Shown: positions 2,531 through 26,297 of the stretch, one piece after another
Numbering within the stretch: the first letter of the stretch is position 1
Layout of the letters: each line of letters starts with the position of its first letter
DNA from: Nostoc punctiforme PCC 73102
Lineage (GTDB): Bacteria > Cyanobacteriota > Cyanobacteriia > Cyanobacteriales > Nostocaceae
Direction of reading: 5' to 3'
Length of the DNA: 26,419 nucleotides
Assembly: GCF_000020025.1 (NCBI RefSeq)
Contig: NC_010629.1
Span: 1-26,419 of the forward strand
Position numbers and translations under genes: made by a program
Notes under the pieces: model-generated
What the model was told of the DNA's origin: nothing
Databases searched by the model: none
Seen by the model: the letters and a program-made list of their open reading frames with translations, nothing else

Positions 2531-2977
2531 ATGAGGACGAATCAAACGAGCAATCGAGAAAGTAAGTTAAATTCACGACAGCGCCTTGTTGGAATCAGGA
2601 TCTTGCTAGTAGAGGATGAGCCAGATATTGCAGACCTGCTCATCTTCGTTCTGGAAACAGCAGGTGCAGAGGTGATGGCTTTGATCAACGCAGAAGCAGC
2701 CTTCGGCATCCTCGAATCGTTTCATCCGAATATTCTGGTATCCAATGTCAAGTTGCCTCATCATAATGGAAATTGGTTGATTGAGCAAATTCGGGGACAT
2801 TCCAGCCCATACTTCCGGCAGTTGCCAGCAATCGCTATTACTTCTTATACACGGGAATTTTCCGAAAGTAAGGCTTTAAATGCAGGCTTTAATCGATTTC
2901 TAGTCAAGCTTGAGAATCTAGAGTCAATAGAGGGTGTGATAGTTGATTTACTATCCAGCCGTGATTATACGGACTAA
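2531..2977 (+). CDS. Single-domain CheY-like receiver with Asn replacing the phospho-acceptor Asp (pseudo-receiver)
   Basis: RILLVEDEPD acidic pocket, conserved Thr/Ser (AIAITSY) and Lys (FLVK). The acceptor position reads NILVSNVKLP, where the neighbouring regulator has DIVISDIGMP. Confidence 0.8.
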   Translation: MRTNQTSNRESKLNSRQRLVGIRILLVEDEPDIADLLIFVLETAGAEVMALINAEAAFGILESFHPNILVSNVKLPHHNGNWLIEQIRGHSSPYFRQLPAIAITSYTREFSESKALNAGFNRFLVKLENLESIEGVIVDLLSSRDYTD

Positions 2978-3067: not shown

Positions 3068-3541
3068 TTATATAGTTTGTCCTGTAAGCCTTGCTACAAC
3101 TGCAACAAGATCATCAGGTTCAAAAGGCTTACAAATAACCTCTTGAAACCCTGCATCTATTGCTTCGCTAATGTCTTCTGGATACGCATAACTTGTTAAA
3201 GCCACAGCTGGAAGAAACCCACCCATTGACGCTTCTTTGTTTCTGATGGAGGTAACTAGTGAGTAACCGTCCTTGTCAGGCATCCCGATGTCGCTGATCA
3301 CAATATCTGGTTTCCACTCTTCAATTGCTTCTATAGCTTCATCCACCGATGTTGCCGTTTTGGTTTGTGCCTGGTAATCTGACAAAATAAACGTAACTAT
3401 ACACAAGCAATCGTCATTGTCATTGTCATCTACCACAAGTACCCTTAAACCATTGAGGGATGGAGATTGACTTTGCGGTATTTGCTCTAAAAACTCTCTA
3501 TCTTTTTGTGGATATGTCACGTTAGAATTTTTTGGCAACAT
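3068..3541 (-). CDS. Single-domain CheY-like response regulator receiver (canonical)
   Basis: VLVVDDNDND..., PDIVISDIGMPDKDGY (acceptor Asp), AVALTSYA, ICKPFEP. AGGAGG lies 8 nt upstream of the ATG at 3541. Confidence 0.9.
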   Translation of the reverse strand: MLPKNSNVTYPQKDREFLEQIPQSQSPSLNGLRVLVVDDNDNDDCLCIVTFILSDYQAQTKTATSVDEAIEAIEEWKPDIVISDIGMPDKDGYSLVTSIRNKEASMGGFLPAVALTSYAYPEDISEAIDAGFQEVICKPFEPDDLVAVVARLTGQTI

Positions 3542-3609: not shown

Positions 3610-3913
3610 TTAGACATTTTCATTACTAAATCAATAATAGAATAATCTATATAGCCCTATATTTTCAATTACTCTTTCTCTTAAGCTTGTTATAGCAAGC
3701 TTTGACCTCACACACCAAAGACATCACTTGTGTAAAGTAGTACTTATTCCACTAGAATTCTAGGTAATAAAGTAATCATTTATCAGTGTGGTAGTTCAGA
3801 AAAGATTACGATTAATAACCTTATCCTTCTCAAATAAATCTGACTTAACCGACCAGAATCGAGTCGAATTATTACAATCCAAGCAACTCTTAAGTTCTAG
3901 GCGGCGAAGCTCC

Positions 3914-3978
3914 GTGTCTGCCGATGCCTGTAACAATCTGAGTGTCTCAACGAGTGGATTTGTGGCAGTGGCAGACAC
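3914..3978. repeat. Minor cluster of the GTGTCT motif (2 forward, 1 reverse) just downstream of the relaxase gene
   Basis: GTGTCT at 3914 and 3942, AGACAC at 3973. The 10-mer gtgtctgccg is shared with the main array at 10347-10356. Spacings are 28 and 31 bp. Confidence 0.35.
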
Positions 3979-4017
3979 CGACTATTTGAGCGAAGCGGTT
4001 AAGAGTTGCGCCATCAC

Positions 4018-6657
4018 CTAGAGGGAAATTCCTTTACTCTGTCTTCTTTCTTGTTGCCGCTTTTCTTCTATTATTTGTTGCAATATACGCTCTGCTTTTT
4101 GCCAAAGCTGAATATCTTCTCTTTCTATTTCCCCCACATTAATCGGTGAATACTCAAGCTTACCTGAATGGTTTCGGTTAACTGCCACCCGAAAAATTTC
4201 ACCTCGTTCATCATGGGTAAATACCAGTTCTTTCCCCTGCTTTTCCAGAGTGGCACGTTTAAATCTAAGGCTATTCTCACTACTTTCTTTTAATTGCCAA
4301 TTGATGAGTTCAACAGCAATAGGCACAGCTATAGCTAATAATTCTTGCTCTTGACGCTGCTTTTCTGTGAGTGAATTTTCTGGCTCTGACTTTTGAGTTG
4401 CCAGTTGATTGCTAGCGATAAGTACCAATTCTCTGGCTTCATCTTGTGTCCATCCGGCTGGACTGGCTTTGAGAATTTCTTCAACATCTTGGGGTAGTTT
4501 ATTATCTTTGAGCGCCTGTATAGCAATTTCTTTATCTCGGTCAGTCACTAATAAGTTTTGCAAATCGGTGCTGTAATACTCATATAATTCTGCTGTTTGA
4601 TTAGATTTTAGCTTTAGTTTATCTATGGCTAAATTTTGAGCTTTATTAAGAGCAATTGCATCCACTGTTTTTTGCGATCTATGGAGTTGCTCCAAATAAA
4701 CAATCGCTGCTTCCAGGTTGTCGAATATGGTTCTTCCGGCTTCTACCTGCTGCTGATTTTGAGAAAGTTGTTGTGTTAATTCTAATACTGTTTCAGTTAA
4801 TGCTGAAGAGACAGTCGATTGCTCAATATAATCAAAAATTGATGAAATGGCTCTCTTCTCTAGATATGATTGTAACTCATTCGCAAGCACTGCATTCAGG
4901 TCATTAAATGTAGCTTTAGCTGTAACAAGCTGCTCTTTGTATTGAGAAAGTTGTTGCGTTAATTCTAATACTGCTTCAGTTAAGGCTGACTCGACAGTTG
5001 ATTGCTCAATATAATCATATATTGATAAGATAGCTTTCTTCTCTGCATGGGATTGCAACTCAGCCGTCAACGCTGTTTCAAAGTCATTGAATGTAGTTTT
5101 CGCTTCAACTAACTGCTGATGATATTGAGAAATTTGCTGTGTTAATCCTAATACTGTTTCAGTTAAAGCTGACTCGATAGTTGATTGCTCAATATAATCA
5201 TATATTGATAAAATAGCTCTCTTCTCTGGATGAGATTGTAACTCAGCCGTCAATGCTTCATCAAAGTCATTAAATGTAGTTTTCGCTTCAAGTAGCTGCT
5301 GATGATATTGAGACAGTTGCTCTGTTAATCCTAATACTGCTTGGCTTAAAGCAGATTCGATAGTTGATTGCTCAATATAATCAGAGATTGACAAAATGGC
5401 TTTTTTCTCTGCGTGGGATTGCAACTCAGTCGTTAACCCTGTTTCAAAGTCATTGAATGCAGTTTTAGCTCGAAGGAGTTGCTGCCGATAAATAGATAGT
5501 TGTTCTGTTAATTGTGGCAACGTTTCAGCTAAAGTATCATCAACTGCTGACTGTTCAATAAAGTTAGAGATTGTATTTATGAGTTCTGAACTGGCTTGTT
5601 GTTCTGCATCTGATTTAGCTGGATTTATCTGGTGTTTATTTTCAGCTATAGCTTGAGCTTTTTTCGGGAATATGGTTGGTATTAGCTCTTGATTAAGTTG
5701 GCTGTTATCTACAGAATCTAAGAAATTATTTAAGTGTTTAATTTCGCTATCGTCCCGTTTGGGGTCGTAATTTATCCCCAATTCTGTCTGAAGCTTTGTA
5801 AATGAACACTTATATTTATTGAGATTACCTCCCTGTTTCCAGAGGAAACGGGGGCTACCATCTTCATTAACTGAGCCGACATCAATGCCAAACTTGATGC
5901 CCCTTACCCCACCGTGACCGTAATAACTAACGACAGCTTTGACGTGATACTCTCTCCATAACTGCTCAATTAGCTGGGGCATTGTGGGTTTATTTACTGC
6001 CACTTGCTCAATCGCCCGTCGCATTATTTCTTCGCCTGGAAGTCCATCGCATTCGACTCGTTCCAGTTGATTACGAGTCATAGCCTTTTGCTTACTCTCC
6101 CAACTGCTTTGAACTTGGGTTAGCTGAAATTCTCGCTCTAGCAGTCGGGCGGAGTGTTCAGAGTGGGCGTAATTATTCCAAGTGCGGATAGATTTACCAT
6201 CTAGGTTATTGACTCTAGATGCAACGATGTGAGTGTGGTCGTGTTCTTTATCAGAGTGCCGCGCTATAAAGAAGTCATAGGCTGGTAGTTCTGATTCTAT
6301 GAAGTCATCAACTAGCTGTTTTAGTTTGGTATCTGATATTCTTTTTTCTGGCTGTTTAACTTGGGATTCATCACCTTGAAGCCGCGATAGTACAATGACC
6401 GATGCCAAGTGACGTTGAGACAGATTAGCTAATTCGTCATCATTTAGCGTTCTATCACTTTTTGGTACACTAAGCATTAAGTGATAGCATGGGTCTTTTA
6501 GCTGCGGGTTAAGATGGGCTGATAAGGTAAACTGGTCAACCAATTCATTGGTACTTCTCCCGTACATATTCCCGCCAATAATTTTGGCTTTCTCTTTTTC
6601 AAGCACATATTTAGTAGTGCCACGAAATGATTTATTAGCCTTAACTTTGGTAATCAT
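4018..6657 (-). CDS. Relaxase/mobilisation nuclease (MobA/VirD2-type N-terminal domain) with a long repeat-containing C-terminal extension (879 aa)
   Basis: N-terminal KSFRGTTKYVLEKEK (catalytic-Tyr motif region) and the His triad RHSDKEHDHTHIV (HxDxxxHxH). Overlaps the upstream mobC by 17 nt. The middle third is five 61-aa helical repeats. Confidence 0.9.
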   Translation of the reverse strand: MITKVKANKSFRGTTKYVLEKEKAKIIGGNMYGRSTNELVDQFTLSAHLNPQLKDPCYHLMLSVPKSDRTLNDDELANLSQRHLASVIVLSRLQGDESQVKQPEKRISDTKLKQLVDDFIESELPAYDFFIARHSDKEHDHTHIVASRVNNLDGKSIRTWNNYAHSEHSARLLEREFQLTQVQSSWESKQKAMTRNQLERVECDGLPGEEIMRRAIEQVAVNKPTMPQLIEQLWREYHVKAVVSYYGHGGVRGIKFGIDVGSVNEDGSPRFLWKQGGNLNKYKCSFTKLQTELGINYDPKRDDSEIKHLNNFLDSVDNSQLNQELIPTIFPKKAQAIAENKHQINPAKSDAEQQASSELINTISNFIEQSAVDDTLAETLPQLTEQLSIYRQQLLRAKTAFNDFETGLTTELQSHAEKKAILSISDYIEQSTIESALSQAVLGLTEQLSQYHQQLLEAKTTFNDFDEALTAELQSHPEKRAILSIYDYIEQSTIESALTETVLGLTQQISQYHQQLVEAKTTFNDFETALTAELQSHAEKKAILSIYDYIEQSTVESALTEAVLELTQQLSQYKEQLVTAKATFNDLNAVLANELQSYLEKRAISSIFDYIEQSTVSSALTETVLELTQQLSQNQQQVEAGRTIFDNLEAAIVYLEQLHRSQKTVDAIALNKAQNLAIDKLKLKSNQTAELYEYYSTDLQNLLVTDRDKEIAIQALKDNKLPQDVEEILKASPAGWTQDEARELVLIASNQLATQKSEPENSLTEKQRQEQELLAIAVPIAVELINWQLKESSENSLRFKRATLEKQGKELVFTHDERGEIFRVAVNRNHSGKLEYSPINVGEIEREDIQLWQKAERILQQIIEEKRQQERRQSKGISL
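4690..5605 (-). repeat. Five tandem 183-bp (61-codon) repeats inside the relaxase gene
   Basis: The marker gattgctcaatataatca recurs at 4817, 5000, 5183 and 5366, and degenerate at 5549, with an exact 183-bp period. Peptide unit ILSIYDYIEQSTIESALTETVLGLTQQISQYHQQLVEAKTTFNDFETALTAELQSHAEKKA. Central copies are most similar to each other. Confidence 0.9.
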
Positions 6658-7087
6658 TGCGCTGCCCTTCTACCGAAGGTTGAGTGAGTGATTGGCGAGT
6701 CTGTTCTAAAAGTGCTGTCAGTTCTTCAAGAGTTTTCAGATATAATTTCACCTCGTTAGTCAACGGTTGGCTACCAATTTTCACAGCTTCGTTAATAGCC
6801 CTAGTCTGTTGATTCAGGTTGTTACCAATCTTTTTTAACTCATAGATAGCCTGTCGGTTAACTTCGGGAATGACTAATTTAGGATGTGGCAAAGGGTAGT
6901 CAAATAATCTCGCTCTTATATAGTCACTTTGCACCACTCCACTGCAACGCTGCTCTAGTCTAGTTTTCTCGGCATAGCTAGCCCTAAACGTGATGGTTAC
7001 TTCTCGCTTTTCATCTGGTGCTACTGACCGATTGGTTAATGTGTCAGCTAGTTGATTACTAAGATTGGTGCGGGGGTCTGGCTGCAT
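6641..7087 (-). CDS. mobC: MobC-family relaxosome accessory protein
   Basis: RHH-like VTITFRASYAEKTRLEQRC followed by the MobC signature LKKIGNNLNQQTRAINEAV. Located immediately upstream of the relaxase and overlapping it. Confidence 0.85.
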   Translation of the reverse strand: MQPDPRTNLSNQLADTLTNRSVAPDEKREVTITFRASYAEKTRLEQRCSGVVQSDYIRARLFDYPLPHPKLVIPEVNRQAIYELKKIGNNLNQQTRAINEAVKIGSQPLTNEVKLYLKTLEELTALLEQTRQSLTQPSVEGQRNDYQS

Positions 7088-7127
7088 AACTAATTAGGCG
7101 TTTAGCTATTTTTATCTTTATTTTTCA

Positions 7128-7188
7128 CCGGGTTATTCGCTGTAGCTGCTACGGCGCTTTGCGCCGAGCAGGTAGGCGAATAACCCGG
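7128..7188. promoter_or_regulatory. Large compound hairpin; candidate oriT inverted repeat
   Basis: Perfect 13-bp outer arms ccgggttattcgc (7128-7140) and gcgaataacccgg (7176-7188). Inner stems ctgct/agcag and cggcgc-ttt-gcgccg. It lies 41 bp upstream of mobC, between divergent mob operons. Confidence 0.5.
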
Positions 7189-7440
7189 AACCTTTTCTCA
7201 CTTATTAACCCCTTGAAAAGAACGGTTTTCTGGGGGTTTGGGGGACACCCCCAACAAGCAAACACACCGCCTTTCGCTTGCGAAAGGGAGCGCGGTAGCG
7301 CGTTACGGTGTATTGCTTGCCTATGCCCCCACGACAGGTTAGGGCAAACGTGAGCCAGGAGGCACAACGCGAGACTGGGGGAGTACGAGACTTTGGCGAA
7401 CCATGAGTGGCTGTCTGCAATCACCTCGATGTAAGCGAGG
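7189..7440. other. GC-rich, hairpin-dense non-coding island (part of the candidate oriT / leading-region structure)
   Basis: Hairpins ttggggg-aca-cccccaa (7236-7254) and cctttcgc-tt-gcgaaagg, both enclosed by caagcaaacacacc / ggtgtattgcttg pairing. Short ORFs in three overlapping frames have no protein-like sequence. Confidence 0.45.
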
Positions 7441-7638
7441 GTATGGTCTATTGGGCAATGCTGTCCATACTAGTGATACGAAAGATGTTGATTCATGAGT
7501 AACTGCTTTTTTAGACTAGTCTACCTCACGAGGATACAAACCTTTTTCTGTTGATATTCGTCACATCACGACAAGAAACTTAAACTTTTTTTGACCACGA
7601 ATTTTTTACAATTGAATAATTTATTACTAGTGCTGAAT

Positions 7639-8133
7639 ATGTCGCGCAAACCGAAAGCTGTCCCTTTATCAAAAATAGAAGATATTCAAATCAGTCTCAA
7701 ACAGAAAGCCGCGACTCCTAAAACTATCAGCCTGTCAGATTTAGTTCTCAGTTTGGCTAAACCTATTCAAGATATGTTAGACGCTGGCTACTCTTATGAC
7801 GATGTTTCTGATGTGTTTAAAGGTCATGGGGTAGAACTGGCGGCCAGTGGTCTGAAGAGTTTTCATAAAAAAGCTTCGACATCAACTGACAATAATTTGA
7901 GTAGTTCATCATCAGATAAAGCGGTTGAAGAATCAGTTAATTCTGACTCCGAGCCAGAATCAACTGATTCTTCAACCACAACTAATGACTTGGTTTCGCC
8001 AGTAGAGCCGGACAGTTCACCAATTGAGAGTAGTGAACCATCCGGCTCATCATCATCTAAAACTAGTAAACGAAAGAAAACAACTCCTAATACTTCTGCC
8101 CAATTTAATATCACTGATAGGAGTGAATTATGA
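7639..8133 (+). CDS. Hypothetical DNA-binding-like protein with a basic N-terminus, putative HTH and a long Ser/Asp/Glu-rich tail
   Basis: MSRKPKAVPL..., GYSYDDVSDVFKGHGVELAASGLKSF (HTH-like), then about 70 residues of S/D/E/T/P low complexity. The stop overlaps the next ATG (ATGA at 8130-8133). ATG 7639 is preferred to TTG 7591. Confidence 0.6.
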   Translation: MSRKPKAVPLSKIEDIQISLKQKAATPKTISLSDLVLSLAKPIQDMLDAGYSYDDVSDVFKGHGVELAASGLKSFHKKASTSTDNNLSSSSSDKAVEESVNSDSEPESTDSSTTTNDLVSPVEPDSSPIESSEPSGSSSSKTSKRKKTTPNTSAQFNITDRSEL

Positions 8134-8951
8134 AACGTATCGTGATGATACTGGGGGGCAAGGGTGGTACAGGTAAAACTGCCTTTACTCGCTTGCTACT
8201 GGATGTAATGCACAATAAAGGAATTAATTATCTAGCTTATGACGCAGATACAGAGAATCCAGAATTGTACGAGTACTATCAAAACTTTGGCTCAGGGGTA
8301 AGGCTATTAAATTTCCTGGAGGTAGCAGAGGCGAAACGCTTCTTTACGGAAATCAAAGCGGAATCACCGGACTCAATAATAGTAGATATGCCGGGGGCAT
8401 CAAGCAATAAAACCAGGGAGATTATCAGTAAGTTTGGGCTATTTAAGATTGCAGGTGATTTGGGTTATCGAGTAACGCTGGTGACTGTGCTTAACCTTGG
8501 GTATTCAGTCATCACTAGCTTAAAAACTATGGCGGAATTCTGCGGCGCTCAAGCTGATTATGTGATTGTGAAAAATCTATGCTGGGATAAAGGTTCAGGT
8601 TTTCAGCGCTGGGAGAATAGTAAAACGTCGGCAGCGATATCTGAATTGAAAGGCATAGAAATAGAAATGCCAGAGCTAGACTACTCGACCTTTGACACGT
8701 TGACAGAGAAAGGTCTACCTTACTCGGCTGCTACTGAAGAGAATGGTTTTCCTTTTGGAGATTACCTGCTAGTGAGTGGGTTTTTGGATCAGGCTAAACC
8801 AGAGCTTGAAAAAGCTGGGGCTTATCTGGGGTTGCAACAACCAGAGGTTCTGGTTGCTGCTTTAGAAAACACTACGACTTCAAAACAGACAAAAGTTACT
8901 GCGTCTACTTCTCGTCGGGGTCAAAAGAAAACTAATGAGCAACAACAATAA
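8130..8951 (+). CDS. ParA/MinD-superfamily P-loop ATPase (possibly TraL/VirC1-like relaxosome-associated)
   Basis: Deviant Walker A ILGGKGGTGKT at the N-terminus and IIVDMPG Walker-B-like. Translationally coupled to the flanking genes, next to the mob/oriT region. Confidence 0.8.
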   Translation: MKRIVMILGGKGGTGKTAFTRLLLDVMHNKGINYLAYDADTENPELYEYYQNFGSGVRLLNFLEVAEAKRFFTEIKAESPDSIIVDMPGASSNKTREIISKFGLFKIAGDLGYRVTLVTVLNLGYSVITSLKTMAEFCGAQADYVIVKNLCWDKGSGFQRWENSKTSAAISELKGIEIEMPELDYSTFDTLTEKGLPYSAATEENGFPFGDYLLVSGFLDQAKPELEKAGAYLGLQQPEVLVAALENTTTSKQTKVTASTSRRGQKKTNEQQQ

Positions 8952-9743: not shown

Positions 9744-9950
9744 TCAAAGGTAAGAATGCACAAGCTTACCTTGAGTTGACCACTTCTCATCTAGAAGGCG
9801 ACAAGCGACGTAAACAACATTTTGAGGATTGCGCTTGTGTCTTCCATTAGTACCCCAAGAACGGACGGTATAATCACCTTCATAACCTAAGACAAGTGAA
9901 AGCTCGTCGTAAGTTAACTGCCATTTTTTCTTAAACTCAATTGGGTGCAT
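9744..9950 (-). CDS. Small conserved hypothetical protein, paralog 1 (68 aa; HTH-like)
   Basis: MHPIEFKKKWQLTYDELSLVLGYEGDYTVRSW... The protein is conserved against its neighbour despite DNA divergence. Confidence 0.65.
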   Translation of the reverse strand: MHPIEFKKKWQLTYDELSLVLGYEGDYTVRSWGTNGRHKRNPQNVVYVACRLLDEKWSTQGKLVHSYL

Positions 9951-10001
9951 AGTATTCAGGTATTTCCATAAATTAATTAGCAGAGACGCAAAGAGAAATT
10001 A

Positions 10002-10208
10002 TCAAAGGTAAGAATCTATAACTTTCCCCTCAGATGACCATTTTTCATCTAGAAGGCGACAAGCTACATAAGCAACTTTTTGAGGATTGCGCCTGTGTCC
10101 TCCATTTATCCCCCAACAACGGACAGTGAAATCATTTTCGTAACCTAAGACGAGTGCTAGCTCGTTGTAAGTTAATTGCCACTTTTTCTTAAACTCAATT
10201 GGGTGCAT
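10002..10208 (-). CDS. Small conserved hypothetical protein, paralog 2 (68 aa; HTH-like)
   Basis: MHPIEFKKKWQLTYNELALVLGYENDFTVRCW... The ATG at 10208 matches the start of paralog 1. The track start at 10226 is a TTG. Confidence 0.65.
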   Translation of the reverse strand: MHPIEFKKKWQLTYNELALVLGYENDFTVRCWGINGGHRRNPQKVAYVACRLLDEKWSSEGKVIDSYL

Positions 10209-10240
10209 AGGATTCAGGTATTTCAATAAATTAATTAGTC

Positions 10241-10415
10241 GTGTCTGGCAGACATTATTAAGACATCAACCCTTACCGTGGTGTCTTGCGGTGTCTGAAC
10301 TGGTGTCCGAGTCGTGTCTAAGCTATGTAAGGGTTTCAGGCTTTTGGTGTCTGCCGTGTCTGGGGTTGATATCTGCCAAAAAAGCCCCGTTTTTAATCAC
10401 AGACACGCTAGACAC
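10241..10415. repeat. Iteron-like array of GTGTCT (7 forward, 2 reverse, plus 2 partial copies)
   Basis: GTGTCT at 10241, 10281, 10291, 10314, 10347 and 10356, and GTGTCC at 10303. AGACAC at 10401 and 10410. Partial AGACAT at 10251 and 10261. Neighbour spacings are 9-12 bp. Confidence 0.85.
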
Positions 10416-10423
10416 CCAAGGGC

Positions 10424-12223
10424 TTAATCTTGGTTTAACTTGATGATTCCTTCACCAATCCAATTGGCTAACCCTGCCCCAACAATCTCGTACATCCAAG
10501 ACTTAATAAGCTCTACAGAGAATCTTTCACCCTGTACTTTAAAGTTGCCCTTAAACTCTCTTACATCAGCTTCAACTCGTTCAGTTCTGATGAAATATTC
10601 ATACAGTTTTTGCGCCTGAGGTGATAATTTATTCGGCTCACTTTGGGTATTATCTGCCTTGCTACCAAGATTGAATTCCAGTTCATAAATGCGCTCTAAA
10701 GTGGCTTTATCGATGGGGGGATTGGGATTAGATTCTGCTGGGAGAGCGTCGCTAAAGTCAGATATTTTCGCTGTCATTTTGGGGAGATTAACATCAAGCC
10801 ATTCGTTGGAACTGTCGAGTTTAACATGAGCAAAACCAGTCGATGAGGGCTGTAGTGTAACTGGATCTACTTCTGCCAAACATTCAACTTGGAGCATCTT
10901 AGAAACAAGATTATGTAATCCCTTAATGCCGAATAAACACGTCTGGGTGTTGTTGTGAGCTACGACAGTAATGGGCATCTCTTGCTTACGGCTTTTGGTT
11001 AGTGCCAGCTTGCCGAATTTGTCTAACAGTTCTGCATCTTTAATGAAATCGCCGTATGTGGTGGCCTCCTCACAGATTAAAGACAAAGCTTTACCTGATG
11101 CCCAAAGTTTCTGCCGCCATTGCGACTCACTCAATGATGAATTATTAAAGGTTTTTAACCGTGATTCTAATTCTTGAACGTAATCGCGGATCTGCTGCTC
11201 TATCTCGTCCCAGGAGTGGTAACTTTCAACTCCTCGCCATTCACTACGGTTCGAGTCGGGGTCAAGGACAATCACACGGTAGCCGGCTTGTTTTTTGAGT
11301 TGGATTACATAACGGGCTAGCCAAGATTTACCGCCCCCTTGGTTGCCCCAAATTAGGGCAGTTTGTTTAATTAGGTTTTGCACCCATGCCGTTTTATTGT
11401 CCTGTGGTGCGATTGCTTGGTTGTCTGCTCCAGTAACCTTGTCGTTCGGGTCAATCGTCCCTTGTAAAGTCTGACTCCCTTGCAGATAGGGCGTTTTCAT
11501 CTCCCGTAGCTGCTTAATGTACTCCGCCTTCTGTTGGTCAGTCATGCCTGCGGTTTGCGCCTCAAAAATGGCATCAGTTGCCTCCATTTGCGTGACTTCA
11601 ATCTCAGTGTGGGCGTAAATCTCGGCTTTTTGGATATCAACGGTGCGATCATTGGCTATCAAATCTAAATCGGCTTGCAATTGGACTTCTGCGATCGCAA
11701 CGTCTCGGTAACTCTCTAGTAGCTCGGAACGTGCAGCCATCTCAGCTTTTGCAGCATCCCGTTTTTGGGCGATGTCTTCAAAAACTGCTCTCTGCTTCTC
11801 CTCATACTGACAATGGCGCAGCATCCACCCAGCTAGAGCAAACCCCAGGAATCCACCAAACGCCCAAAACGGTTTGCATGGGTTAGTCGCTTTTACCAAC
11901 CCATTAACGCCCATAGCTGGGTCACGCACTACTTGGCGGGGCATTCCAGACAGTTTCCATTCTTGCCAGTAGAAGGGGGTCATGCGAAACGGTCGGTTAT
12001 CTTTATCCCGGCACACCAATGCTTTTGAAGGGGTTTTGATGCAGAAGTAGATCCGATCGCTGCTGGTTCCCTGCCACGCCATCGCAGCCGATCCAATACC
12101 CACAGTTAAACTCAATCCAATGGCAACAGCTTTCTTGTCCATCGGCAACTGTCCGAACCACTTCATTAAACCCGATTGTTGTGACTCAGATAACTGTTTA
12201 TGTTTATCGCTTAAATAATTCAT
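10424..12223 (-). CDS. Membrane-anchored P-loop NTPase (FtsK/TraB/T4CP-like by architecture; function unproven)
   Basis: N-terminal hydrophobic helices (AVAIGLSLTVGIGSAAMAW, FWAFGGFLGFALAGWML), a coiled-coil stretch, Walker A GNQGGGKS, VIVLDPD and LSLICEEA (Walker-B-like), and a C-terminal helical domain that looks winged-helix-like. The ATG at 12223 overlaps the upstream stop (ATGA). Confidence 0.7.
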   Translation of the reverse strand: MNYLSDKHKQLSESQQSGLMKWFGQLPMDKKAVAIGLSLTVGIGSAAMAWQGTSSDRIYFCIKTPSKALVCRDKDNRPFRMTPFYWQEWKLSGMPRQVVRDPAMGVNGLVKATNPCKPFWAFGGFLGFALAGWMLRHCQYEEKQRAVFEDIAQKRDAAKAEMAARSELLESYRDVAIAEVQLQADLDLIANDRTVDIQKAEIYAHTEIEVTQMEATDAIFEAQTAGMTDQQKAEYIKQLREMKTPYLQGSQTLQGTIDPNDKVTGADNQAIAPQDNKTAWVQNLIKQTALIWGNQGGGKSWLARYVIQLKKQAGYRVIVLDPDSNRSEWRGVESYHSWDEIEQQIRDYVQELESRLKTFNNSSLSESQWRQKLWASGKALSLICEEATTYGDFIKDAELLDKFGKLALTKSRKQEMPITVVAHNNTQTCLFGIKGLHNLVSKMLQVECLAEVDPVTLQPSSTGFAHVKLDSSNEWLDVNLPKMTAKISDFSDALPAESNPNPPIDKATLERIYELEFNLGSKADNTQSEPNKLSPQAQKLYEYFIRTERVEADVREFKGNFKVQGERFSVELIKSWMYEIVGAGLANWIGEGIIKLNQD

Positions 12224-12759
12224 TTCCTCTGACTTCCACCAAATAGAAAAATCATTAATATCGCTAGAAATATGCCCACTCCTGCACCATCCATCCAACT
12301 TGAAGATTCAGCAGTTTTTGGCTTATAAACCGACTCAATAGAAGTCTTAACTGTACTTGTAGAAGTTCTCGCTTCATTCCATTCACTAATCGGGTCAGAT
12401 AGCGCACACAATAACGCCAGTGATGCACTGCAACCAGTCATTAGATTAGTAACGAAATTGTTAAAGCCTTCACCTGTTGCAGTAGCAGTAAAATACAGGT
12501 GTGCAGTTCCCACAGCAAGAAACATTCCAACAGGGTGAACTTGCAATAGGTGAAAGGTGAAAATAACTGCACTGTTTAAGCAACTGCCAGCGACAACTTC
12601 ACTTGCGTTACCAGCACGTCTAAATGTCCGACCTCTATTGTTTTCTGGGAGTGGTTGCGATGGTTGCTCTTGTTTCTGTTGTTGTGGAGTCTGTGCCAGC
12701 CCTTCCATTAAAAAAGGGCTGACGCTATGAGGATCTTCATTTCGTTTCCTTACTAGCAT
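12220..12759 (-). CDS. Polytopic membrane protein (about 4 TM), unknown function
   Basis: Hydrophobic segments VVAGSCLNSAVIFTFHLLQV, VGMFLAVGTAHLYFTATA, LMTGCSASLALLCAL and GAGVGIFLAILMIFLFGG. Translationally coupled to the ATPase gene. Confidence 0.6.
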   Translation of the reverse strand: MLVRKRNEDPHSVSPFLMEGLAQTPQQQKQEQPSQPLPENNRGRTFRRAGNASEVVAGSCLNSAVIFTFHLLQVHPVGMFLAVGTAHLYFTATATGEGFNNFVTNLMTGCSASLALLCALSDPISEWNEARTSTSTVKTSIESVYKPKTAESSSWMDGAGVGIFLAILMIFLFGGSQRK

Positions 12760-12783
12760 CAGCCTTAACCTTTCAACTAATAG

Positions 12784-13500
12784 TTATCTATCGCCTAACT
12801 TCTGCCACAAATTACCTAACATTGCACCCCAACCGCGAACTGTTCCTGTTGCTGAAACACTAGATGCTGGTGCATGATTTTGGGATTGAACTGGTATTAC
12901 TTCTTGAGGTGTTTGGTTTGGCTCTAATGCTCTGGAACCATACCTCGCACGGGCTAAAAGTTGTTGTCGTTTCTCTCTCAGTCCCGTAGTAATTGCTTGC
13001 CTTTCAGCTTGTACAACTTGCCTGTTTTCGATGCCGCTAATCTTGTTTTCATGCCTCCATAATTCTGCTTGTAAGTCGTGGTGTAATTGGGCTGCAACTT
13101 CGGCTAGTCCGTGCTTACGTTTTTGGTCAATCCGCAACAAGTCGGCTCTATCTTGGGCATCTATCTTGCCCATCTCTGAATCAAATTCCGAATTTAATTT
13201 GCGAATCTTAGCGATAGCACCCGCTACATGAGAGCCGTATTGTTTACGAAGTTCAGTCCAAGTTACCTGCCCTTTGGTTAACTTCTCCATCGCCTCAAAG
13301 ACCACCTTGGCATTGTCCAAAAATGGTTCTAATCGGTCACTTAACTCTTGGGCATTATTCGCATAATCGGCAAATTGTTCAAGCTTGTTTATATCCGAAA
13401 GATAGCCCAAAATATCAGACTCAAACCCTCCCCAAGATTGCGCTTTTTCATCAATATGCGAACTATGACCAACTACCGGATTGCGTATTGCAAAGTCCAT
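12784..13500 (-). CDS. Hypothetical protein with a coiled-coil region (238 aa)
   Basis: AGGAGA RBS upstream of the ATG at 13500. Lies in the operon 12 nt after the preceding gene. Confidence 0.6.
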   Translation of the reverse strand: MDFAIRNPVVGHSSHIDEKAQSWGGFESDILGYLSDINKLEQFADYANNAQELSDRLEPFLDNAKVVFEAMEKLTKGQVTWTELRKQYGSHVAGAIAKIRKLNSEFDSEMGKIDAQDRADLLRIDQKRKHGLAEVAAQLHHDLQAELWRHENKISGIENRQVVQAERQAITTGLREKRQQLLARARYGSRALEPNQTPQEVIPVQSQNHAPASSVSATGTVRGWGAMLGNLWQKLGDR

Positions 13501-13512
13501 TGCGCTATTCTC

Positions 13513-13956
13513 CTAATAAGGTATGTTGTCGTAGTTGATATCGCTGGATTCTTGGGGTAACTCATCCCAGTAACCCATCTCTTCAAATCGGTTATAAATT
13601 CTCGTTGCTAATTGCCTTACGGGGTCGTCCAAATCTTCAGAGATTAAATCAAATCTGTTCTCACCAAATGCCAAAGTATTTGCAATATCAGGGTCAATCC
13701 CATTACCCAAGAATTGACCAAATGCAGCAGAGTATGGATGGTCATCGATAGTTTCATGAGTTGCTAAGAATTCCGTTCCGGTGAAGGGTGGGTAATCTTC
13801 ACTCTCGAAGATTGGTGTGGAGAGTGCCTGAATATCTGCCGAAATCATTGCAGCCCATTGTTCAGGATTTTCCGCTTTGAATTGCTGCTTTCTTAGGGCG
13901 GAGTCGGTCAGAGGTGATTTGCCCCAATCGTTGGGATTTTTGTAATCAAGTGTCAT
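13513..13956 (-). CDS. Strongly acidic hypothetical protein (147 aa)
   Basis: 28 Asp/Glu against 9 Lys/Arg by direct count. AAGGA RBS upstream of the ATG at 13956. Confidence 0.6.
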   Translation of the reverse strand: MTLDYKNPNDWGKSPLTDSALRKQQFKAENPEQWAAMISADIQALSTPIFESEDYPPFTGTEFLATHETIDDHPYSAAFGQFLGNGIDPDIANTLAFGENRFDLISEDLDDPVRQLATRIYNRFEEMGYWDELPQESSDINYDNIPY

Positions 13957-14047
13957 TTGTTAGAATCCTTGTAACGATGTGTACTTGATGCACTTTCGGA
14001 TGAGGCGATTGCACTTACTTTGCTCGGTCAGGGCAATCGCTTTATCA

Positions 14048-14242
14048 TCAGTTCTCACAAAACTCATTTAATTCAAAAACCTCTCTCTGCACTTGGTTTT
14101 GGCTTAGTTCAAAGCGTCTAGCTTTCGAGTCATTGAAAATGAAAGGGGCATTGACTCGACAATTAGAGCGATGGCTGTAGCGCAGTTGTTGACCACGGAA
14201 TTGGTACAGATGATTACGCTGTAAGGCTGTCGTTGAAAGCAT
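14048..14242 (-). CDS. Small basic hypothetical protein (64 aa)
   Basis: In-operon ORF overlapping the upstream gene by 29 nt. No recognisable motif. Confidence 0.4.
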   Translation of the reverse strand: MLSTTALQRNHLYQFRGQQLRYSHRSNCRVNAPFIFNDSKARRFELSQNQVQREVFELNEFCEN

Positions 14243-14489
14243 AAGTTTGTCCCTCGACTTGGGAGTAGAACTCGATATTTAGGATTGCTTCGTGAATCTC
14301 CATCAAAGCTTGCACAGCATCACCCATCTTTAAGTCATTCGATGTACTGAACCGCTCGGACGCTTCGATTTGTTGATAATTTGGGGATGCTTGCACAAAC
14401 CTTAGAGTCTGTTCGCAACCGAGGATGATGGTCATGATTTCGGTTGTTGTTAAGCTTGGTTGCGTCTTTTGGGTGTCTTGGTCGCTCAT
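14214..14489 (-). CDS. Small hypothetical protein (91 aa)
   Basis: GGAAAGAAG RBS-like sequence upstream of the ATG at 14489. Operon context. Confidence 0.5.
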   Translation of the reverse strand: MSDQDTQKTQPSLTTTEIMTIILGCEQTLRFVQASPNYQQIEASERFSTSNDLKMGDAVQALMEIHEAILNIEFYSQVEGQTYAFNDSLTA

Positions 14490-16825: not shown

Positions 16826-19800
16826 ATGGTAGCCATTTTAAAAGGACAGGAAACTGTTGGCGGTTCCGCTATGCCAGGGGCGTTCGCCTCCTTCGACATC
16901 CGAAATTTTCAAGACCAGCTAGAACCGTCCAAAGAAAAAGGCAAGTACATCTGCCCCGTTTGCGGGGGGCATAACTTATCTATCGTCCCAGAAACCGGAA
17001 AGTATCAATGCTTCAATAATTGTGAGTGCAAGGACATCCGAGAGGCAATCAAACCTTGGGATGAAGTGCTGGCAGAGCGACAAAAAACTAATTTCAGTGC
17101 AGCACCAAACAAAAACCCAATCAGAGTTAAGACGGTCAAGCCCAACCCAACCCCAATTCCAGATGGCGAATTAGGTTTGGTAATGTTGACCGAGCCAGCA
17201 ACCAATATTCCCCAACCTCAAAAATTAAAGAGTAAGCGAAAGGGCATCCCCGGAAACGCAACCGAAACAACCTATCAATACTCCCCAACCCAATGGATTG
17301 ACCGTTACGAATGGGCAGACACCAGTAAAGAGAAAGGTTATGACAAGAGTTTTCGGCAATGGCATAGACTCCCCGACGGCACACCAGAAATGAAGAAGGG
17401 TGATCAACCTTGGGGGGCATATCGCATTGATGAAGCGCTAGCCTGTGCTAAATCTGTGACGGGAACCTCGGCACTACTCCAGCATGAAGGTGAGGGATGC
17501 GTAGAAGTTGGTCGGGAGCATGGTCTTGCTGGGATTACGTTTCAGGGCAGTGCATGGGATAAAAAGACTATCACGCCCGAATATCAACGTGCTTTGGATT
17601 CAGGCATAGGATTAATCGTTTTTCTGCACGATGCTGACGACACTGGCTTAAAGAAACTCCAGACCTGCCAGGACTGTGCCGACGAAGTGGGAATTGCATT
17701 TATTGGAATTAACCCTCACGACATCTGCCCCGATTTACCATATAAATCAAGTGATATCAAAGAAATCTTGGGGCAGATGGAAACACCAGAATTTATCCGC
17801 AGGTTAGAGCAGGAGATCCACGCGGCTGTGGCAGAGCGTGAGCAACTGGCAAAGCTGCAAAATTTTGATGATCCTTTAAATGATCTTGATCCAGTTGTCA
17901 GCTTCATTCAAATTGCTTTCAAAACTCTCTATGGCGATAAGAGTTGGATTTGTGCTGCGGATAGGCTCTACTGGCATACTGGCAACCACTACAAACACTC
18001 TCCTGATGACACAGAGCGTAGACGAATCACCAATTTTTGTAATTCATTTGCAGTTGAAAATGAGCAAGGTAAAAAATCCTATCCTTACGCTTCACCCAGT
18101 TCAGTTAAGAAGGTTCTAGAGTGGGCAAAAATGCGAACGGGAATTGAGGCAGAATTACTCAATCCACCAGGGATTAATTGCACTAATGGGATAGTTAGAC
18201 CCGTTTTGATAGGTAATAAGGTTATTCCACGGCTAGACCCTCATACCCCCGAAGATTACTTTATTTATGAACCGTTGATTGAGTACAATCCAAACGCTGA
18301 TACTACAGATTGCGACCGATTACTTGAGTGTTTGGATAGACCCCAGCAAGAAATTCTTTTAAGAAATCTTGCCGCTTCGATTGACCTTAAAACTGTTAGG
18401 AAGCTCAGAGGAAGAGAGGTAAAAGCAATTCTAGCAGTTGGGCTTGGGTCTAACGGTAAAGATGCTCTGCGCGAGTGTGTATCAATCATTTACGGCGAAA
18501 ATGGACTAACTTCTGTCTCTTTAGCAGACTTCCAATTGTACGACGAAGGCAGGAAGTTTAACTTAGCTCCATTGATGCACAGCAGGGTAAATTGGGCATC
18601 AGAAAACCCACAAACGTCGAGAATCGACAAGATTCAAAGCTTAAAATTATTTGTAACTGGTAACAAGTTGCATTGTGAACGGAAGGGTAAAGACCATATT
18701 GAGTTTACCCCTGAAGCCATAGGTATTTTTAACTTGAATGAAACACCATCATTACAAGGAGTAATGAAAGCAATTCAAGATAGGATTGCAGTTTTAGAGT
18801 TTAAGAAAACCTTTGAAAAAAATCCAGATCCTAACAACCCAAATGAATTACTAGCTGATCCCCGCTTTGCTTACGACAAGGAATTTATCAGAACGAAAGT
18901 AGCCCCAGCATTTCTAAATAAAATGCTGCAAGCACTTAATGACCTGATAGAAGAAGGCATTGATTACGAATGTACAACTGATGCTTTCTACAACCTTCAG
19001 AAAGAAAATAATCACCTATTTGACTTCATAGAAGCCGCAAACTTATGTTATGTCCCTGGTAAGGAACTGACTGCAAAAGAGCTATGGGTAAGACTGGAAC
19101 ATTACTACACTCAAACTGGCACATTAACTATAGATTCCGATAACAACCGCAGAACGTGGAGCGAACAGGTTAGACCCAGTGACAAAAACGTAAAGGGCAT
19201 TAACCAAGTCATCGCCAGAATCGCTCAACTCTTCCCCAAGGCTGTCAAGGGAACTAGGTACTGTGACATTGCTAAAAGAAACATTCCAGTACTCAAAGGC
19301 ATTGGCATTTTGGAAGTTACCCGCACCACATTAGACGAAACCCGCACCACTTCCGCACCACTTTCCGCACCAGAAACAACGCATTATCAGGACTTCCGCA
19401 CCACCCGCACCACTTTTTCAGATTCCCAGGAAAAAAACATTGAAGAGTCAGAAATGAAAATTCAATCGCTTCCTATCCCAATGGAAAAAGAAGAATATGC
19501 CACCTCAACTGGTGCGGGTGATGCGGAACCCTTGCTAGATAGGGAAAACTGCTGCGGGGAGTCCTGCGTCAGTGGTGCGGATCAACTAGAAAGTGGTGCG
19601 GGTATGCCAACTGATGATCAGGCAGCGATCGCCGCGCCAATTGCATCCGATACTGTTTTGGTAAAAGCTGAGGACGAGAACTTATACTCACTGTTGCAGA
19701 TTGAAATCGACGGCGGGAACATTGCAGGGTTTGTTGGTTGCCAAGTTGAGGTGCGATCGCTTAGTGGTGCGGTCAAGTTCGCAGGTGAGATGATTAACTA

Positions 19801-19885
19801 CGACTCTAAGAATGGAATTGTGACTGTGGCCACCTCGCAAGGGAACCGAGATGCATCTCTTTGCGAGACGTTTGTAATTGACTAA
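16826..19885 (+). CDS. Bifunctional replicative primase-helicase (zinc finger + TOPRIM + D5/P4-type SF3 NTPase), 1019 aa
   Basis: CPVCGGHNLSIVPETGKYQCFNNCEC zinc finger. TOPRIM LLQHEGEGC ... VFLHDADDTG. Walker A AVGLGSNGKD and ...NWASENP...LFVTGNKLHCERKGKD...FNLNETP, typical of phage/plasmid primase C-terminal domains. AAGGA lies 9 nt upstream. Confidence 0.9.
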   Translation: MVAILKGQETVGGSAMPGAFASFDIRNFQDQLEPSKEKGKYICPVCGGHNLSIVPETGKYQCFNNCECKDIREAIKPWDEVLAERQKTNFSAAPNKNPIRVKTVKPNPTPIPDGELGLVMLTEPATNIPQPQKLKSKRKGIPGNATETTYQYSPTQWIDRYEWADTSKEKGYDKSFRQWHRLPDGTPEMKKGDQPWGAYRIDEALACAKSVTGTSALLQHEGEGCVEVGREHGLAGITFQGSAWDKKTITPEYQRALDSGIGLIVFLHDADDTGLKKLQTCQDCADEVGIAFIGINPHDICPDLPYKSSDIKEILGQMETPEFIRRLEQEIHAAVAEREQLAKLQNFDDPLNDLDPVVSFIQIAFKTLYGDKSWICAADRLYWHTGNHYKHSPDDTERRRITNFCNSFAVENEQGKKSYPYASPSSVKKVLEWAKMRTGIEAELLNPPGINCTNGIVRPVLIGNKVIPRLDPHTPEDYFIYEPLIEYNPNADTTDCDRLLECLDRPQQEILLRNLAASIDLKTVRKLRGREVKAILAVGLGSNGKDALRECVSIIYGENGLTSVSLADFQLYDEGRKFNLAPLMHSRVNWASENPQTSRIDKIQSLKLFVTGNKLHCERKGKDHIEFTPEAIGIFNLNETPSLQGVMKAIQDRIAVLEFKKTFEKNPDPNNPNELLADPRFAYDKEFIRTKVAPAFLNKMLQALNDLIEEGIDYECTTDAFYNLQKENNHLFDFIEAANLCYVPGKELTAKELWVRLEHYYTQTGTLTIDSDNNRRTWSEQVRPSDKNVKGINQVIARIAQLFPKAVKGTRYCDIAKRNIPVLKGIGILEVTRTTLDETRTTSAPLSAPETTHYQDFRTTRTTFSDSQEKNIEESEMKIQSLPIPMEKEEYATSTGAGDAEPLLDRENCCGESCVSGADQLESGAGMPTDDQAAIAAPIASDTVLVKAEDENLYSLLQIEIDGGNIAGFVGCQVEVRSLSGAVKFAGEMINYDSKNGIVTVATSQGNRDASLCETFVID
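19320..19413 (+). repeat. Six forward copies of CCGCACCAC inside the primase-helicase coding region
   Basis: Starts at 19321, 19342, 19353, 19365 (8/9), 19396 and 19405, with spacings of 21, 11, 12, 31 and 9 bp. The copies fall in two different codon phases (TRTT vs SAPL). Confidence 0.85.
19510..19772 (-). repeat. Reverse-orientation copies (GTGGTGCGG) of the same 9-mer, still inside the coding region
   Basis: Perfect copies at 19572, 19593 and 19764. 8/9 variants at 19509-19517 and 19518-19526. Confidence 0.8.
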
Positions 19886-25330: not shown

Positions 25331-25386
25331 TGTAATAATGTAATTATGTAAATAAGTACAAATGTAATAATGTAATTTATTACATT
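25331..25386. repeat. Seven tandem 8-bp units (TGTAATAA type) immediately downstream of the RHH gene
   Basis: tgtaataa|tgtaatta|tgtaaata|agtacaaa|tgtaataa|tgtaattt|attacatt, with an exact 8-bp register from 25331. Confidence 0.85.
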
Positions 25387-25660
25387 AGCTTTTTAGCTCC
25401 TCCTCAACTAGAGCAATCATATATTCCTTAATGGTCATGCCTTTTTTGGTAGCACGGATTTTAATCTCCTGGTGCTGTGCCTCTGTAACTTCAAAAGTAA
25501 CTCGCTTGCTTTTGCCGTTGTTAACTTCTTCTGTGCCTGTAGTACTAGGCGTTTCAGCAGCATTGCGACTTTCTACCCATGCTGCTGCTTCATCTTTTAC
25601 AGGCGTTTTCTGAACACCTGGCCTTAAGCTTAGTTTTTGTGATTTTTTAACTTCTGCCAT
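25385..25660 (-). CDS. RHH centromere-binding / repressor protein (ParG/omega-like partner of ParA)
   Basis: Flexible basic N-terminal half. C-terminal KRVTFEVTEAQHQEIKIRATKKGMTIKEYMIALVEEELK fits the RHH pattern. Overlaps the parA stop by 14 nt. Confidence 0.75.
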   Translation of the reverse strand: MAEVKKSQKLSLRPGVQKTPVKDEAAAWVESRNAAETPSTTGTEEVNNGKSKRVTFEVTEAQHQEIKIRATKKGMTIKEYMIALVEEELKS

Positions 25661-26297
25661 GATTCGTTTCCTCTCTTGCTTCTAATATCTCCTCAACAAC
25701 AGCTCGTACTTCATCACTGGCAGCACTTTTCGGGGCAGCTTCCAAAACAGTACTCCCAATGTTCAAACACTCAGCAAATGCTACCCTTTGACTTATCTGT
25801 GCTTTTAACACTGGAAAGGGGTATTCTCCTAAAACTTCAGTTACTTCTCGCCCAAGAGCAGTGTTCGCTATCTTTCTGTTGATTAGAAATGCTGCTGTTA
25901 GGTCTGGCTTATATATAGTGGCCTCTTGTACCAGTTCTACTACCTCATGCACCGCCCACACATCCAAAGGAGATGGTTGTACAGGAACCAGCACAAAATC
26001 CACTGCCATGATTGCTGATCTGGTTAAGTCAGAAACTCTTGGCGCACCATCAATGAAAACAAAATCATACCCCTGCGCTAGTTTGGGCAATTCTTTATGC
26101 AAGATAGGACGATCCAAACCAATAACGCTAAATGGAGCCTCACCATTACGTGCTGCTGCCCAGTCACGGGTTGAGCCTTGAGGATCAGTATCAACAAGTA
26201 ATACTCGATACCCTATCATCGAAAAAGCATGAGCCAAATGGATAGATACTGTGGTCTTGCCACTGCCCCCTTTTTGATTCAAAACTGCAATTTTCAT
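25647..26297 (-). CDS. parA: ParA partition ATPase (small type Ib-like)
   Basis: MKIAVLNQKGGSGKTT (deviant Walker A), LLVDTDPQGS, FVFIDGAP. 216 aa. Confidence 0.9.
   Translation of the reverse strand: MKIAVLNQKGGSGKTTVSIHLAHAFSMIGYRVLLVDTDPQGSTRDWAAARNGEAPFSVIGLDRPILHKELPKLAQGYDFVFIDGAPRVSDLTRSAIMAVDFVLVPVQPSPLDVWAVHEVVELVQEATIYKPDLTAAFLINRKIANTALGREVTEVLGEYPFPVLKAQISQRVAFAECLNIGSTVLEAAPKSAASDEVRAVVEEILEAREETNHGRS

Follow-up and report, generated by a model that had tools for sequence, protein, structure and literature searches.

Introduction

In Streptomyces, the C termini of the ATPase TraB recognise direct 8-bp repeats in a locus termed clt, and TraB works together with small Spd proteins encoded in its operon (PMC4447253). 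Here we describe a locus of comparable layout on a stretch of 26,419 nt from Nostoc punctiforme PCC 73102 (assembly GCF_000020025.1, contig NC_010629.1, positions 1-26,419, forward strand), which we call the window and which is a Nostoc-type plasmid. In the window, the final gene of an operon of small proteins encodes a membrane-anchored P-loop ATPase of 599 residues, and its stop codon (10424-10426) is followed after 8 nt by an array of GTGTCT units. Comparison of related loci revealed that the C-terminal tail of the ATPase and the repeat unit of the array change together. As judged by analogy, an ATPase with such a tail and such repeats resembles the Streptomyces pump for transfer of double-stranded DNA, and it is undescribed in cyanobacteria; neither the operon nor the protein turned up in our literature searches.

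As with TraB and clt of plasmids such as pSVH1 and pIJ101, a membrane-associated FtsK-like ATPase carries a C-terminal domain, here predicted, for short repeats in a locus beside its gene, and the repeat locus lies at the 3' end of the motor gene or directly behind it. In both cases specificity varies between plasmids, the operon proteins are small, poorly conserved and translationally coupled, and the host is filamentous and multicellular. The two also differ. TraB repeats are direct and 8 bp long, whereas the Nostoc units measure 6-8 bp and, in the type A arrays defined below, stand in both orientations. The Nostoc protein has a long coiled coil between anchor and core, its host is a diderm cyanobacterium, and most of the plasmids with the ATPase carry MobC together with a MOBP or MOBV relaxase, while TraB systems use none. 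The likeness is one of architecture, and was drawn against the description of TraB rather than against a TraB sequence or model.

Other systems share parts of this layout. FtsK gamma with its KOPS words, like SpoIIIE with SRS, combines a motor of the FtsK fold, a C-terminal winged helix and short oriented DNA words, all of which are predicted here too. However, KOPS are spread over the whole chromosome and set direction, whereas 8-13 units are packed into about 180 bp at one locus here; the Nostoc ATPase is plasmid-borne, is not a cell-division protein, and the window protein has no match to PF01580 (FtsK_SpoIIIE). TcpA, which is borne on the Clostridium perfringens plasmid pCW3 along with a relaxase, carries a pair of transmembrane helices at its N terminus ahead of an FtsK-like domain, and it gives the best structural match to the Nostoc core. 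In contrast to the window, pCW3 encodes a full transfer apparatus, and TcpA is not known to have a sequence-specific winged helix or an adjacent repeat array. With VirD4 and TrwB the Nostoc protein shares a pair of membrane helices at the N terminus joined by a short external loop, a cytoplasmic P-loop domain and an association with mobilizable plasmids; its core, however, comprises about 210 residues without the all-alpha domain and matches no model of that family. ParR/parC of plasmid R1 and omega with its heptad sites on pSM19035 use many short repeats at a spacing of about one helical turn or closer, which form two blocks flanking a central core and are bound in a cooperative manner. Their binders are small ribbon-helix-helix proteins and not the tail of a membrane motor, and their repeats lie upstream of the regulated operon. 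Units in both orientations around a conserved core set this locus apart from TraB, FtsK and TcpA, as do the long coiled coil, the presence of a MobC/relaxase pair and the diderm, filamentous cyanobacterial host.

Results

We fetched 80 genomic loci and several complete plasmids, and compared the ATPase tail with the 320 bp around its stop codon, taking as the repeat unit of each locus the most frequent downstream hexamer found de novo. In 73 of 73 related loci, with zero exceptions, five tail types were paired each with its own unit. Type A tails, including that of the window, go with GTGTCT (53/53 loci, 4-11 copies per array), type B tails with CTGTCT or CTGTCC, that is CTGTCY (12/12, 3-8 copies), type D with ACGGCA (4/4, 6-9 copies), type E with TCCAAC (3/3, 5-6 copies), and type F with GTCCCGA (1/1, 6 copies). 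GTGTCT occurs only 0-1 times in type B arrays, and its background density is 0-0.9 per kb. Type A tails are about 80% identical to one another, type A and type B tails about 38%, and these two related types have related units, which share TGTCY and are one base apart.

In the window, nine GTGTCT units (seven forward, two inverted) had been counted in the earlier note. Eight exact copies, six forward and two inverted, are in fact present in the 175 bp of the array, and a ninth is obtained only if GTGTCC at 10303 is counted. This unit, AGACAT at 10250 and 10261, and ATATCT at 10369 make up the degenerate copies. The total for the whole window is unremarkable, with 15 GTGTCT on both strands and 10.3 +/- 2.9 expected from shuffles. 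The clustering right after the stop codon, as it had been claimed, is well supported: 1000 first-order Markov simulations gave at most 3 copies per 175 bp, and the Poisson probability of eight or more copies is about 5e-16 when the rest of the window supplies the background rate. Start-to-start spacings in the window are 40, 10, 12, 11, 33, 9, 45 and 9 bp, and the common spacings over the 53 related arrays are 7, 9, 10, 11 and 12 bp. Because these range from 7 to 12 bp, the strict helical phasing at 9-12 bp that had been proposed is unsupported.

Although the units differ, the arrays of types A and D are built alike. Read in the direction of the ATPase gene, the stop codon is followed by two units, a spacer holding a run of A and a run of T, inverted units (two to four), a non-repeat core, more units and then the next gene; the consensus of the type A core in this build is AAACCCTTATACAG. 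Arrays built like that of the window follow all 53 type A genes examined. For the central core the consensus AAAcCCTTaTacAG (ATPase sense) is kept in type A, and a related AATCCTTaTAcAgCAAG is kept in type B. Types E and F have the stop codon, two units, spacer and inverted units as in A and D, and no common core or A/T-flanked spacer was seen in them. In type B all units share one orientation, and the first four lie inside the open reading frame, in its last ~30 nt, and encode the end QTDGQNGQN (L001, L057, L073 and others of the fetched loci). Thus, in type B the DNA site and the protein tail physically overlap.

Orphan or remnant type B arrays were also seen. Locus L083 (pNPM7) has seven CTGTCT in 90 bp at 12425-12514, and L023 and L024 have further ones downstream of the ATPase gene. 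They sit about 1 kb past a type A array, or past a type C tail, and look like fossils of earlier tail-plus-array cassettes that were displaced by newer ones.

The genes on either side of the tail and array were then compared in the same loci. Either main type of ATPase core can be joined to an A tail or to a B tail, and L073 has a B tail on a third core. The upstream operon proteins, where they lie inside the fetched DNA, are 69-100% identical between type A and type B loci. Downstream, a LuxR-type response regulator follows the type A array in about 21-34 loci, and more than 10 other contexts were found. One response regulator follows A (21 loci), D (3 loci) and B (1 locus) arrays, and is 86-94% identical throughout except in L004 (67%). 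In many loci, for example L003, the next gene, often a regulator of LuxR/NarL type, starts at a fixed distance of ~225 nt past the ATPase stop. On these sequence comparisons, neither core type nor the upstream operon proteins nor the downstream gene tracks the repeat motif.

The limits of the exchanged segment were seen in sliding comparisons. Between L003 and L085, identity is ~90% up to 1000 nt before the stop codon, falls to random through core, tail and array, and is back to 95% at ~165-214 nt past the stop, shortly ahead of the response-regulator gene. Where two loci share a core, similarity breaks off 240-340 nt before the stop codon, in the linker that precedes the winged helix. The exchanged tail-plus-array interval encodes no protein besides the tail. 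Since the recombination breakpoints bracket tail and array, the array belongs to the tail cassette and not to the downstream gene. Furthermore, the array recombines freely on its other side, the five pairs are independent of one another, and tail similarity parallels unit similarity, all of which argue that the pairing of tail and unit is functional.

The protein itself has the elements that had been read from its translation: two hydrophobic helices, a long helix, a Walker A motif GNQGGGKS and a Walker B-like LICEEA were all found. The AlphaFold model of the whole ATPase is of moderate confidence (predicted local distance difference test, pLDDT, 63). Alignment of homologs revealed invariant cysteines C61 and C71 in the loop between the two membrane helices, glutamates E385 and E386 invariant in 19 homologs, and an invariant R412-K413 pair within the core, which is a candidate for the arginine finger. 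In a Foldseek search of the PDB, the core matched TcpA of pCW3 first (6o1x, E 1e-6), and then the FtsK motor (6t8b and 2ius, E 6e-6 to 1e-5), EccC and the packaging ATPase B204 of STIV2; no VirD4 or TrwB structure was among the 50 matches listed. For the C-terminal domain, a winged helix-like fold had been suggested, and a separate model together with Foldseek bears this out: its top matches are mostly winged-helix DNA-binding domains (ArsR, Fur, BlaI, PhiH1 repressor-like), and FtsK gamma (2j5p) superposes on it with a root-mean-square deviation of 2.4 A over 66 columns. On these models, the tail is probably a winged helix.

Sequence profiles gave fainter signals. In Pfam, the window protein had sub-threshold matches in the P-loop region only (DUF87/HerA, AAA_10, DUF815, ATPase_2), DUF87/HerA scoring 19.4 bits against a cut-off of 23.2. 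Weak matches were also obtained among 40 diverse relatives, with DUF87/HerA in 29/40, AAA_10 in 15/40 and FtsK_SpoIIIE in 4/40 (best E 3.5e-4). NCBIfam returned zero matches for the window protein, and neither Pfam nor NCBIfam gave a match to T4SS-DNA_transf, TraG-D_C or TrwB_AAD_bind; the last matched weakly in 1/40 relatives, and the family profile reached TrwB with E 0.26 in the P-loop region alone. The profile and structure searches thus place the core nearest to TcpA and FtsK by fold, and not to VirD4/TrwB, with all profile matches of the window protein below threshold. Judged by its modelled fold, the core is a member of the FtsK/HerA superfamily; strict membership in the FtsK, TraB or VirD4 families is unsupported.

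Close homologs number 364; wherever their source is named it belongs to Nostocales, and no functional name is attached to any of them. Searching 1.8 billion representatives with a profile yielded 482 clusters at 50% identity, and a cluster look-up of the distant relatives returned neither names nor taxonomy. The ATPase is found on 50 plasmids of PLSDB, including pCC7120delta of PCC 7120. In the homolog alignment, residues 1-280 form a highly conserved N-terminal part, which is combined with one of at least two core types and one of several unrelated tails. The two main core types, GNQGGGKS and GGMGAGKS, are ~37% identical, while the N-terminal module is 80-94% identical across loci that differ in ATPase core and tail. 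A search with this module retrieved further cores (GDPGTGKS, GGTGAGKS, AAPGSGKS) and further tails. The relative with the AAPGSGKS core, which is of type D with its own tail and array, is labelled 'type IV secretory system conjugative DNA transfer family protein' in RefSeq.

The other modules vary as well. At one and the same place in the operon, the conserved N-terminal membrane and coiled-coil module is joined to any of at least five unrelated ATPase cores (for example in L085, p057_D 6001-7899). The distant relative L088 (5001-7064) has the same core type (ANQGGGKS), and has a different N terminus and a long, acidic tail outside the winged-helix types A-F, with no downstream array; the core is therefore reused in other contexts.

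Discussion

Because tail and unit covary, no other gene tracks the motif, and the two share a cassette, the array is most likely a clt-like recognition locus that is cognate to the tail of the ATPase itself. From these comparisons we infer physical binding of the tail to the array, and we are fairly confident of it. The reading as a whole, in which a membrane motor ATPase recognises the array through its tail and moves DNA for cell-to-cell transfer or spread, we favour by a narrower measure, at somewhat better than even chances. The ATPase would be an FtsK/HerA superfamily motor of three exchangeable modules, namely anchor with coiled coil, core, and winged helix, and the GTGTCT array would be the cis-acting site recognised by the winged helix. 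Units 7-12 bp apart would allow the tails of an oligomeric, probably hexameric motor to capture their own plasmid. The motor would then load on the captured DNA at the membrane and move it, with the conserved small operon proteins, and possibly the MobC and relaxase of the plasmid, as its partners. Its most likely purpose would be to carry plasmid DNA across the membrane or septum, which would make the ATPase the plasmid's own coupling or translocation ATPase. The oligomeric state, DNA translocation and its direction, the strandedness of the substrate and the biological role we likewise infer. Some plasmids combine the N-terminal module with a third core type that bears the RefSeq DNA-transfer label (unreproduced in our searches); this fusion stands in the same operon and has a tail and an array of its own. 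The FtsK/TraB-clt-like arrangement put forward in the earlier note is partly supported, by the fold and by the covariation over 73 loci, and has lost its helical phasing and a supposed second site at 3914-3978, which is described further below.

A number of points weigh against this reading. Within the window there are no VirB4, channel or other type IV secretion genes, and, unlike TraB systems, its plasmid has a relaxase and a MobC/NikA-like protein. The tail adjoins the array, so that linkage or hitch-hiking could contribute to the covariation. Type C tails and at least one distant relative (L088) have no array, and the array is therefore not required by every member of the family. The structural matches of the core have modest TM-scores of ~0.4, and the Foldseek E-values of the tail, at 0.02-0.3, are weak, as is usual for a domain of 65 residues. 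Searches of PDB, Pfam and NCBIfam with the core and tail sequences gave P-loop-level or chance matches only and led to no curated family, and the RefSeq label of the type D relative was unconfirmed by Pfam, NCBIfam and PDB sequence searches.

A narrower version of the DNA-moving model would make the ATPase a true counterpart of TraB/Spd, that is, an FtsK-like hexamer at the septum or membrane which pumps double-stranded plasmid DNA between cells or filaments without relaxase or type IV secretion system. We regard this version as unlikely. In it, the frequent swapping of tail and array as a unit would keep co-resident Nostoc plasmids from competing for each other's pumps. Among the 50 carrier plasmids of PLSDB, 14 are typed as relaxase-free, which is a weak hint of relaxase-independent transfer.

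Binding of the array by the tail could also serve other ends, such as tethering or segregating the plasmid at a centromere-like site, or controlling transcription as a roadblock, terminator or operator. This is the main rival, to which we give a minor but real share of the probability. A ParM/StbA-type actin-like gene often heads the operon, blocks of short repeats around a central core are reminiscent of parC of plasmid R1, the next gene, often a response regulator, begins at a constant distance past the stop codon, and the window lacks a secretion channel of its own. However, the ParM-like gene and the 93-aa gene that follows it are not kept with the ATPase and array in most loci, and the plasmid already has a ParA/ParG-type pair and a second ParA. 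The ParR/parC reading was rejected on that lack of co-occurrence, and because the array co-varies with the ATPase tail. Consensus scans found no sigma-70-like promoter in the array, the one weak hairpin found in a search for terminators spans the stop codon on the strand opposite the gene, and the RNA fold of the array is only mildly better than that of shuffles (z = -2.1). An FtsK/TcpA-like motor on a two-helix anchor also exceeds what a tether or repressor needs. Should the covariation reflect linkage only, neighbours would simply have been swapped together, and the array would be bound by something else or be a recombination scar or structural element. Contiguity of tail and array, the type B units that run into coding sequence, and the orphan arrays all fit such an origin. 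We nevertheless consider it improbable: the downstream flank, which is equally adjacent, recombines freely, the five pairs are independent and keep one build although their units differ, similar tails come with similar units, and no other protein is encoded in the swapped interval.

Of all the explanations we give least credit to the more conservative one in the earlier note, by which the ATPase is an ordinary coupling protein of the VirD4 type beside an unrelated array of iterons or operators; we hold it to be very improbable. The array would in this case serve the small helix-turn-helix (HTH) paralogs, the response regulator or the CyRepA1-like replication protein. The paralogs do start 15 nt from the array in the window, and one relative bears the type IV secretion DNA-transfer label. 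The paralogs, however, follow type A arrays in 7/53 loci only and were rejected as array binders, as was the response regulator, which stays largely unchanged, one locus excepted, whether the array before it is of type A, B or D. The replication gene lies ~6.4 kb from the array, which is swapped with the ATPase tail and not with that gene. Finally, VirD4, TraG and TrwB models are unmatched apart from the one weak TrwB_AAD_bind match among the relatives, and TrwB is absent from the structural matches listed. An origin of transfer (oriT) within the array is unsupported as well: the MobC/NikA-relaxase pair is 3.8 kb away and has its own upstream inverted repeat, and nicking motifs were not rigorously tested.

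On Nostocales plasmids of small and medium size, neither a coupling protein nor a secretion system is recognised, and for that reason they are typed at present as mobilizable or non-mobile (PMC8600333). Should the ATPase prove to be a sequence-guided DNA pump, such plasmids would have a motor of their own for transfer or spreading, and the picture of how genes move among filamentous cyanobacteria, lichen and plant symbionts among them, would change. The five natural pairs of tail and motif would provide a ready-made specificity code for a winged helix, which domain swaps can probe directly, and the pairs could serve as orthogonal plasmid-handling parts in cyanobacterial engineering.

Genomic context

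The coordinates of the ATPase, the array and the neighbouring genes are collected in Table 1.

Table 1. Features of the 26,419-nt window around the ATPase gene and its repeat array
Feature	Position	Strand	Basis or remark
Membrane-anchored P-loop ATPase, 599 aa, three modules	10424..12223	(-)	translation; homolog alignment
N-terminal membrane part: TM1 (~32-50), ~65-residue loop, TM2 (~118-135); TM, transmembrane helix	11819..12130	(-)	hydrophobicity; AlphaFold helices 28-49 and 117 onward
Long coiled-coil-like helical spacer, residues ~136-243	11495..11818	(-)	AlphaFold helix 117-224 and helix 229-243, pLDDT 50-64
ATPase core, residues ~280-490	10754..11386	(-)	pLDDT 70-88
Walker A GNQGGGKS, residues 293-300	11324-11347	(-)	
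Walker B LICEEA, residues 382-387	11063-11080	(-)	
Type A C-terminal domain, residues ~533-599	10427..10627	(-)	separate model, pLDDT 82-89, topology H-b-H-H-b-b
GTGTCT array, proposed clt-like recognition locus	10241..10415	.	8 exact and 4 degenerate units
Gene-proximal array part, 33-nt imperfect inverted repeat	10347..10415	.	two units at 10401-10415 face two units at 10347-10361 across A6-GCCCCG-T5 spacer
Central non-repeat core between unit blocks, aagctatgtaagggtttcaggctttt (window + strand)	10320..10346	.	
Upstream operon genes	12220..14489	(-)	starts and stops overlapping or close
Operon protein, 179 aa, 3 hydrophobic segments	12220-12759	(-)	hydropathy
Operon protein, 238 aa	12784-13500	(-)	weak PADLOC match, likely chance
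Operon protein, 147 aa	13513-13956	(-)	
Operon protein, 64 aa	14048-14242	(-)	
Operon protein, 91 aa	14214-14489	(-)	matches one PHROG of unknown function
Partition-type system: ParM-like actin	14815-15852		matches PHROG partition protein, E 3e-16
CyRepA1-like replication protein	16826-19885		
MobC/NikA-like protein and MOBP-type relaxase	4018-7087		
Partition-type system: ParA with unannotated 247-aa partner	8130-8951		
Partition-type system: ParA and ParG/ribbon-helix-helix pair	25385-26297		
Receiver-only protein near relaxase	2531-2977	(+)	
Receiver-only protein near relaxase	3068-3541	(-)	
Small HTH-like paralogous open reading frames, 68 and 74 aa	9744-10226		tandem 258-bp duplication (9744-10238), 94% identical over 80 nt

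The small proteins of the operon had no significant match in Pfam, NCBIfam or PADLOC. A search for defence systems with PADLOC returned a weak HerA match only, and known RNA families had zero matches in the window, which also encodes an integrase and a YhcG-type nuclease. The array sits between the ATPase stop codon and the 74-aa HTH-like reading frame; the same protein also follows some of the other type A arrays, as one copy or as two, and recurs at another place on pNe_4. Response-regulator genes are frequent neighbours of the ATPase loci, and the window has the two receiver-only proteins instead.

A second GTGTCT cluster at 3914-3978 had been taken for another site of the ATPase tail. Its three copies lie inside an element of ~150 bp (window 3880-4030) directly 3' of the relaxase gene, which is kept at 79-94% in about 20 Nostocales plasmids, sometimes without an annotated gene nearby. 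Its long inverted repeat, GTGTCTGCCGnTGCC...GGCAGTGGCAGACAC, has the two outer copies as its arms, and the middle copy is not conserved. On p057_D, whose ATPase tail is of type D (ACGGCA), the outer arms are unchanged. We therefore rejected the cluster as a second site; as far as the aligned plasmids tell, the relaxase-linked element is independent of ATPase specificity. It may act as a terminator, as a structured RNA or as a site connected with the relaxase.

Some operon contigs come from metagenome-assembled genomes (MAGs) with other labels, L015, L024 and L068 from one labelled uncultured Acetobacteraceae and L007, L018 and L066 from ones labelled Chroococcales. Compared with the window protein, their ATPases are 61% identical in L066 and 78-91% in the other five, and these non-Nostoc labels probably denote mis-binned plasmid contigs. 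Finally, the region upstream of the MobC/NikA-like gene has a GC-rich stretch at ~7130-7420 with a long inverted repeat, TTATTCGC...GCGAATAA; this stretch is a candidate oriT for the MOBP-type relaxase.

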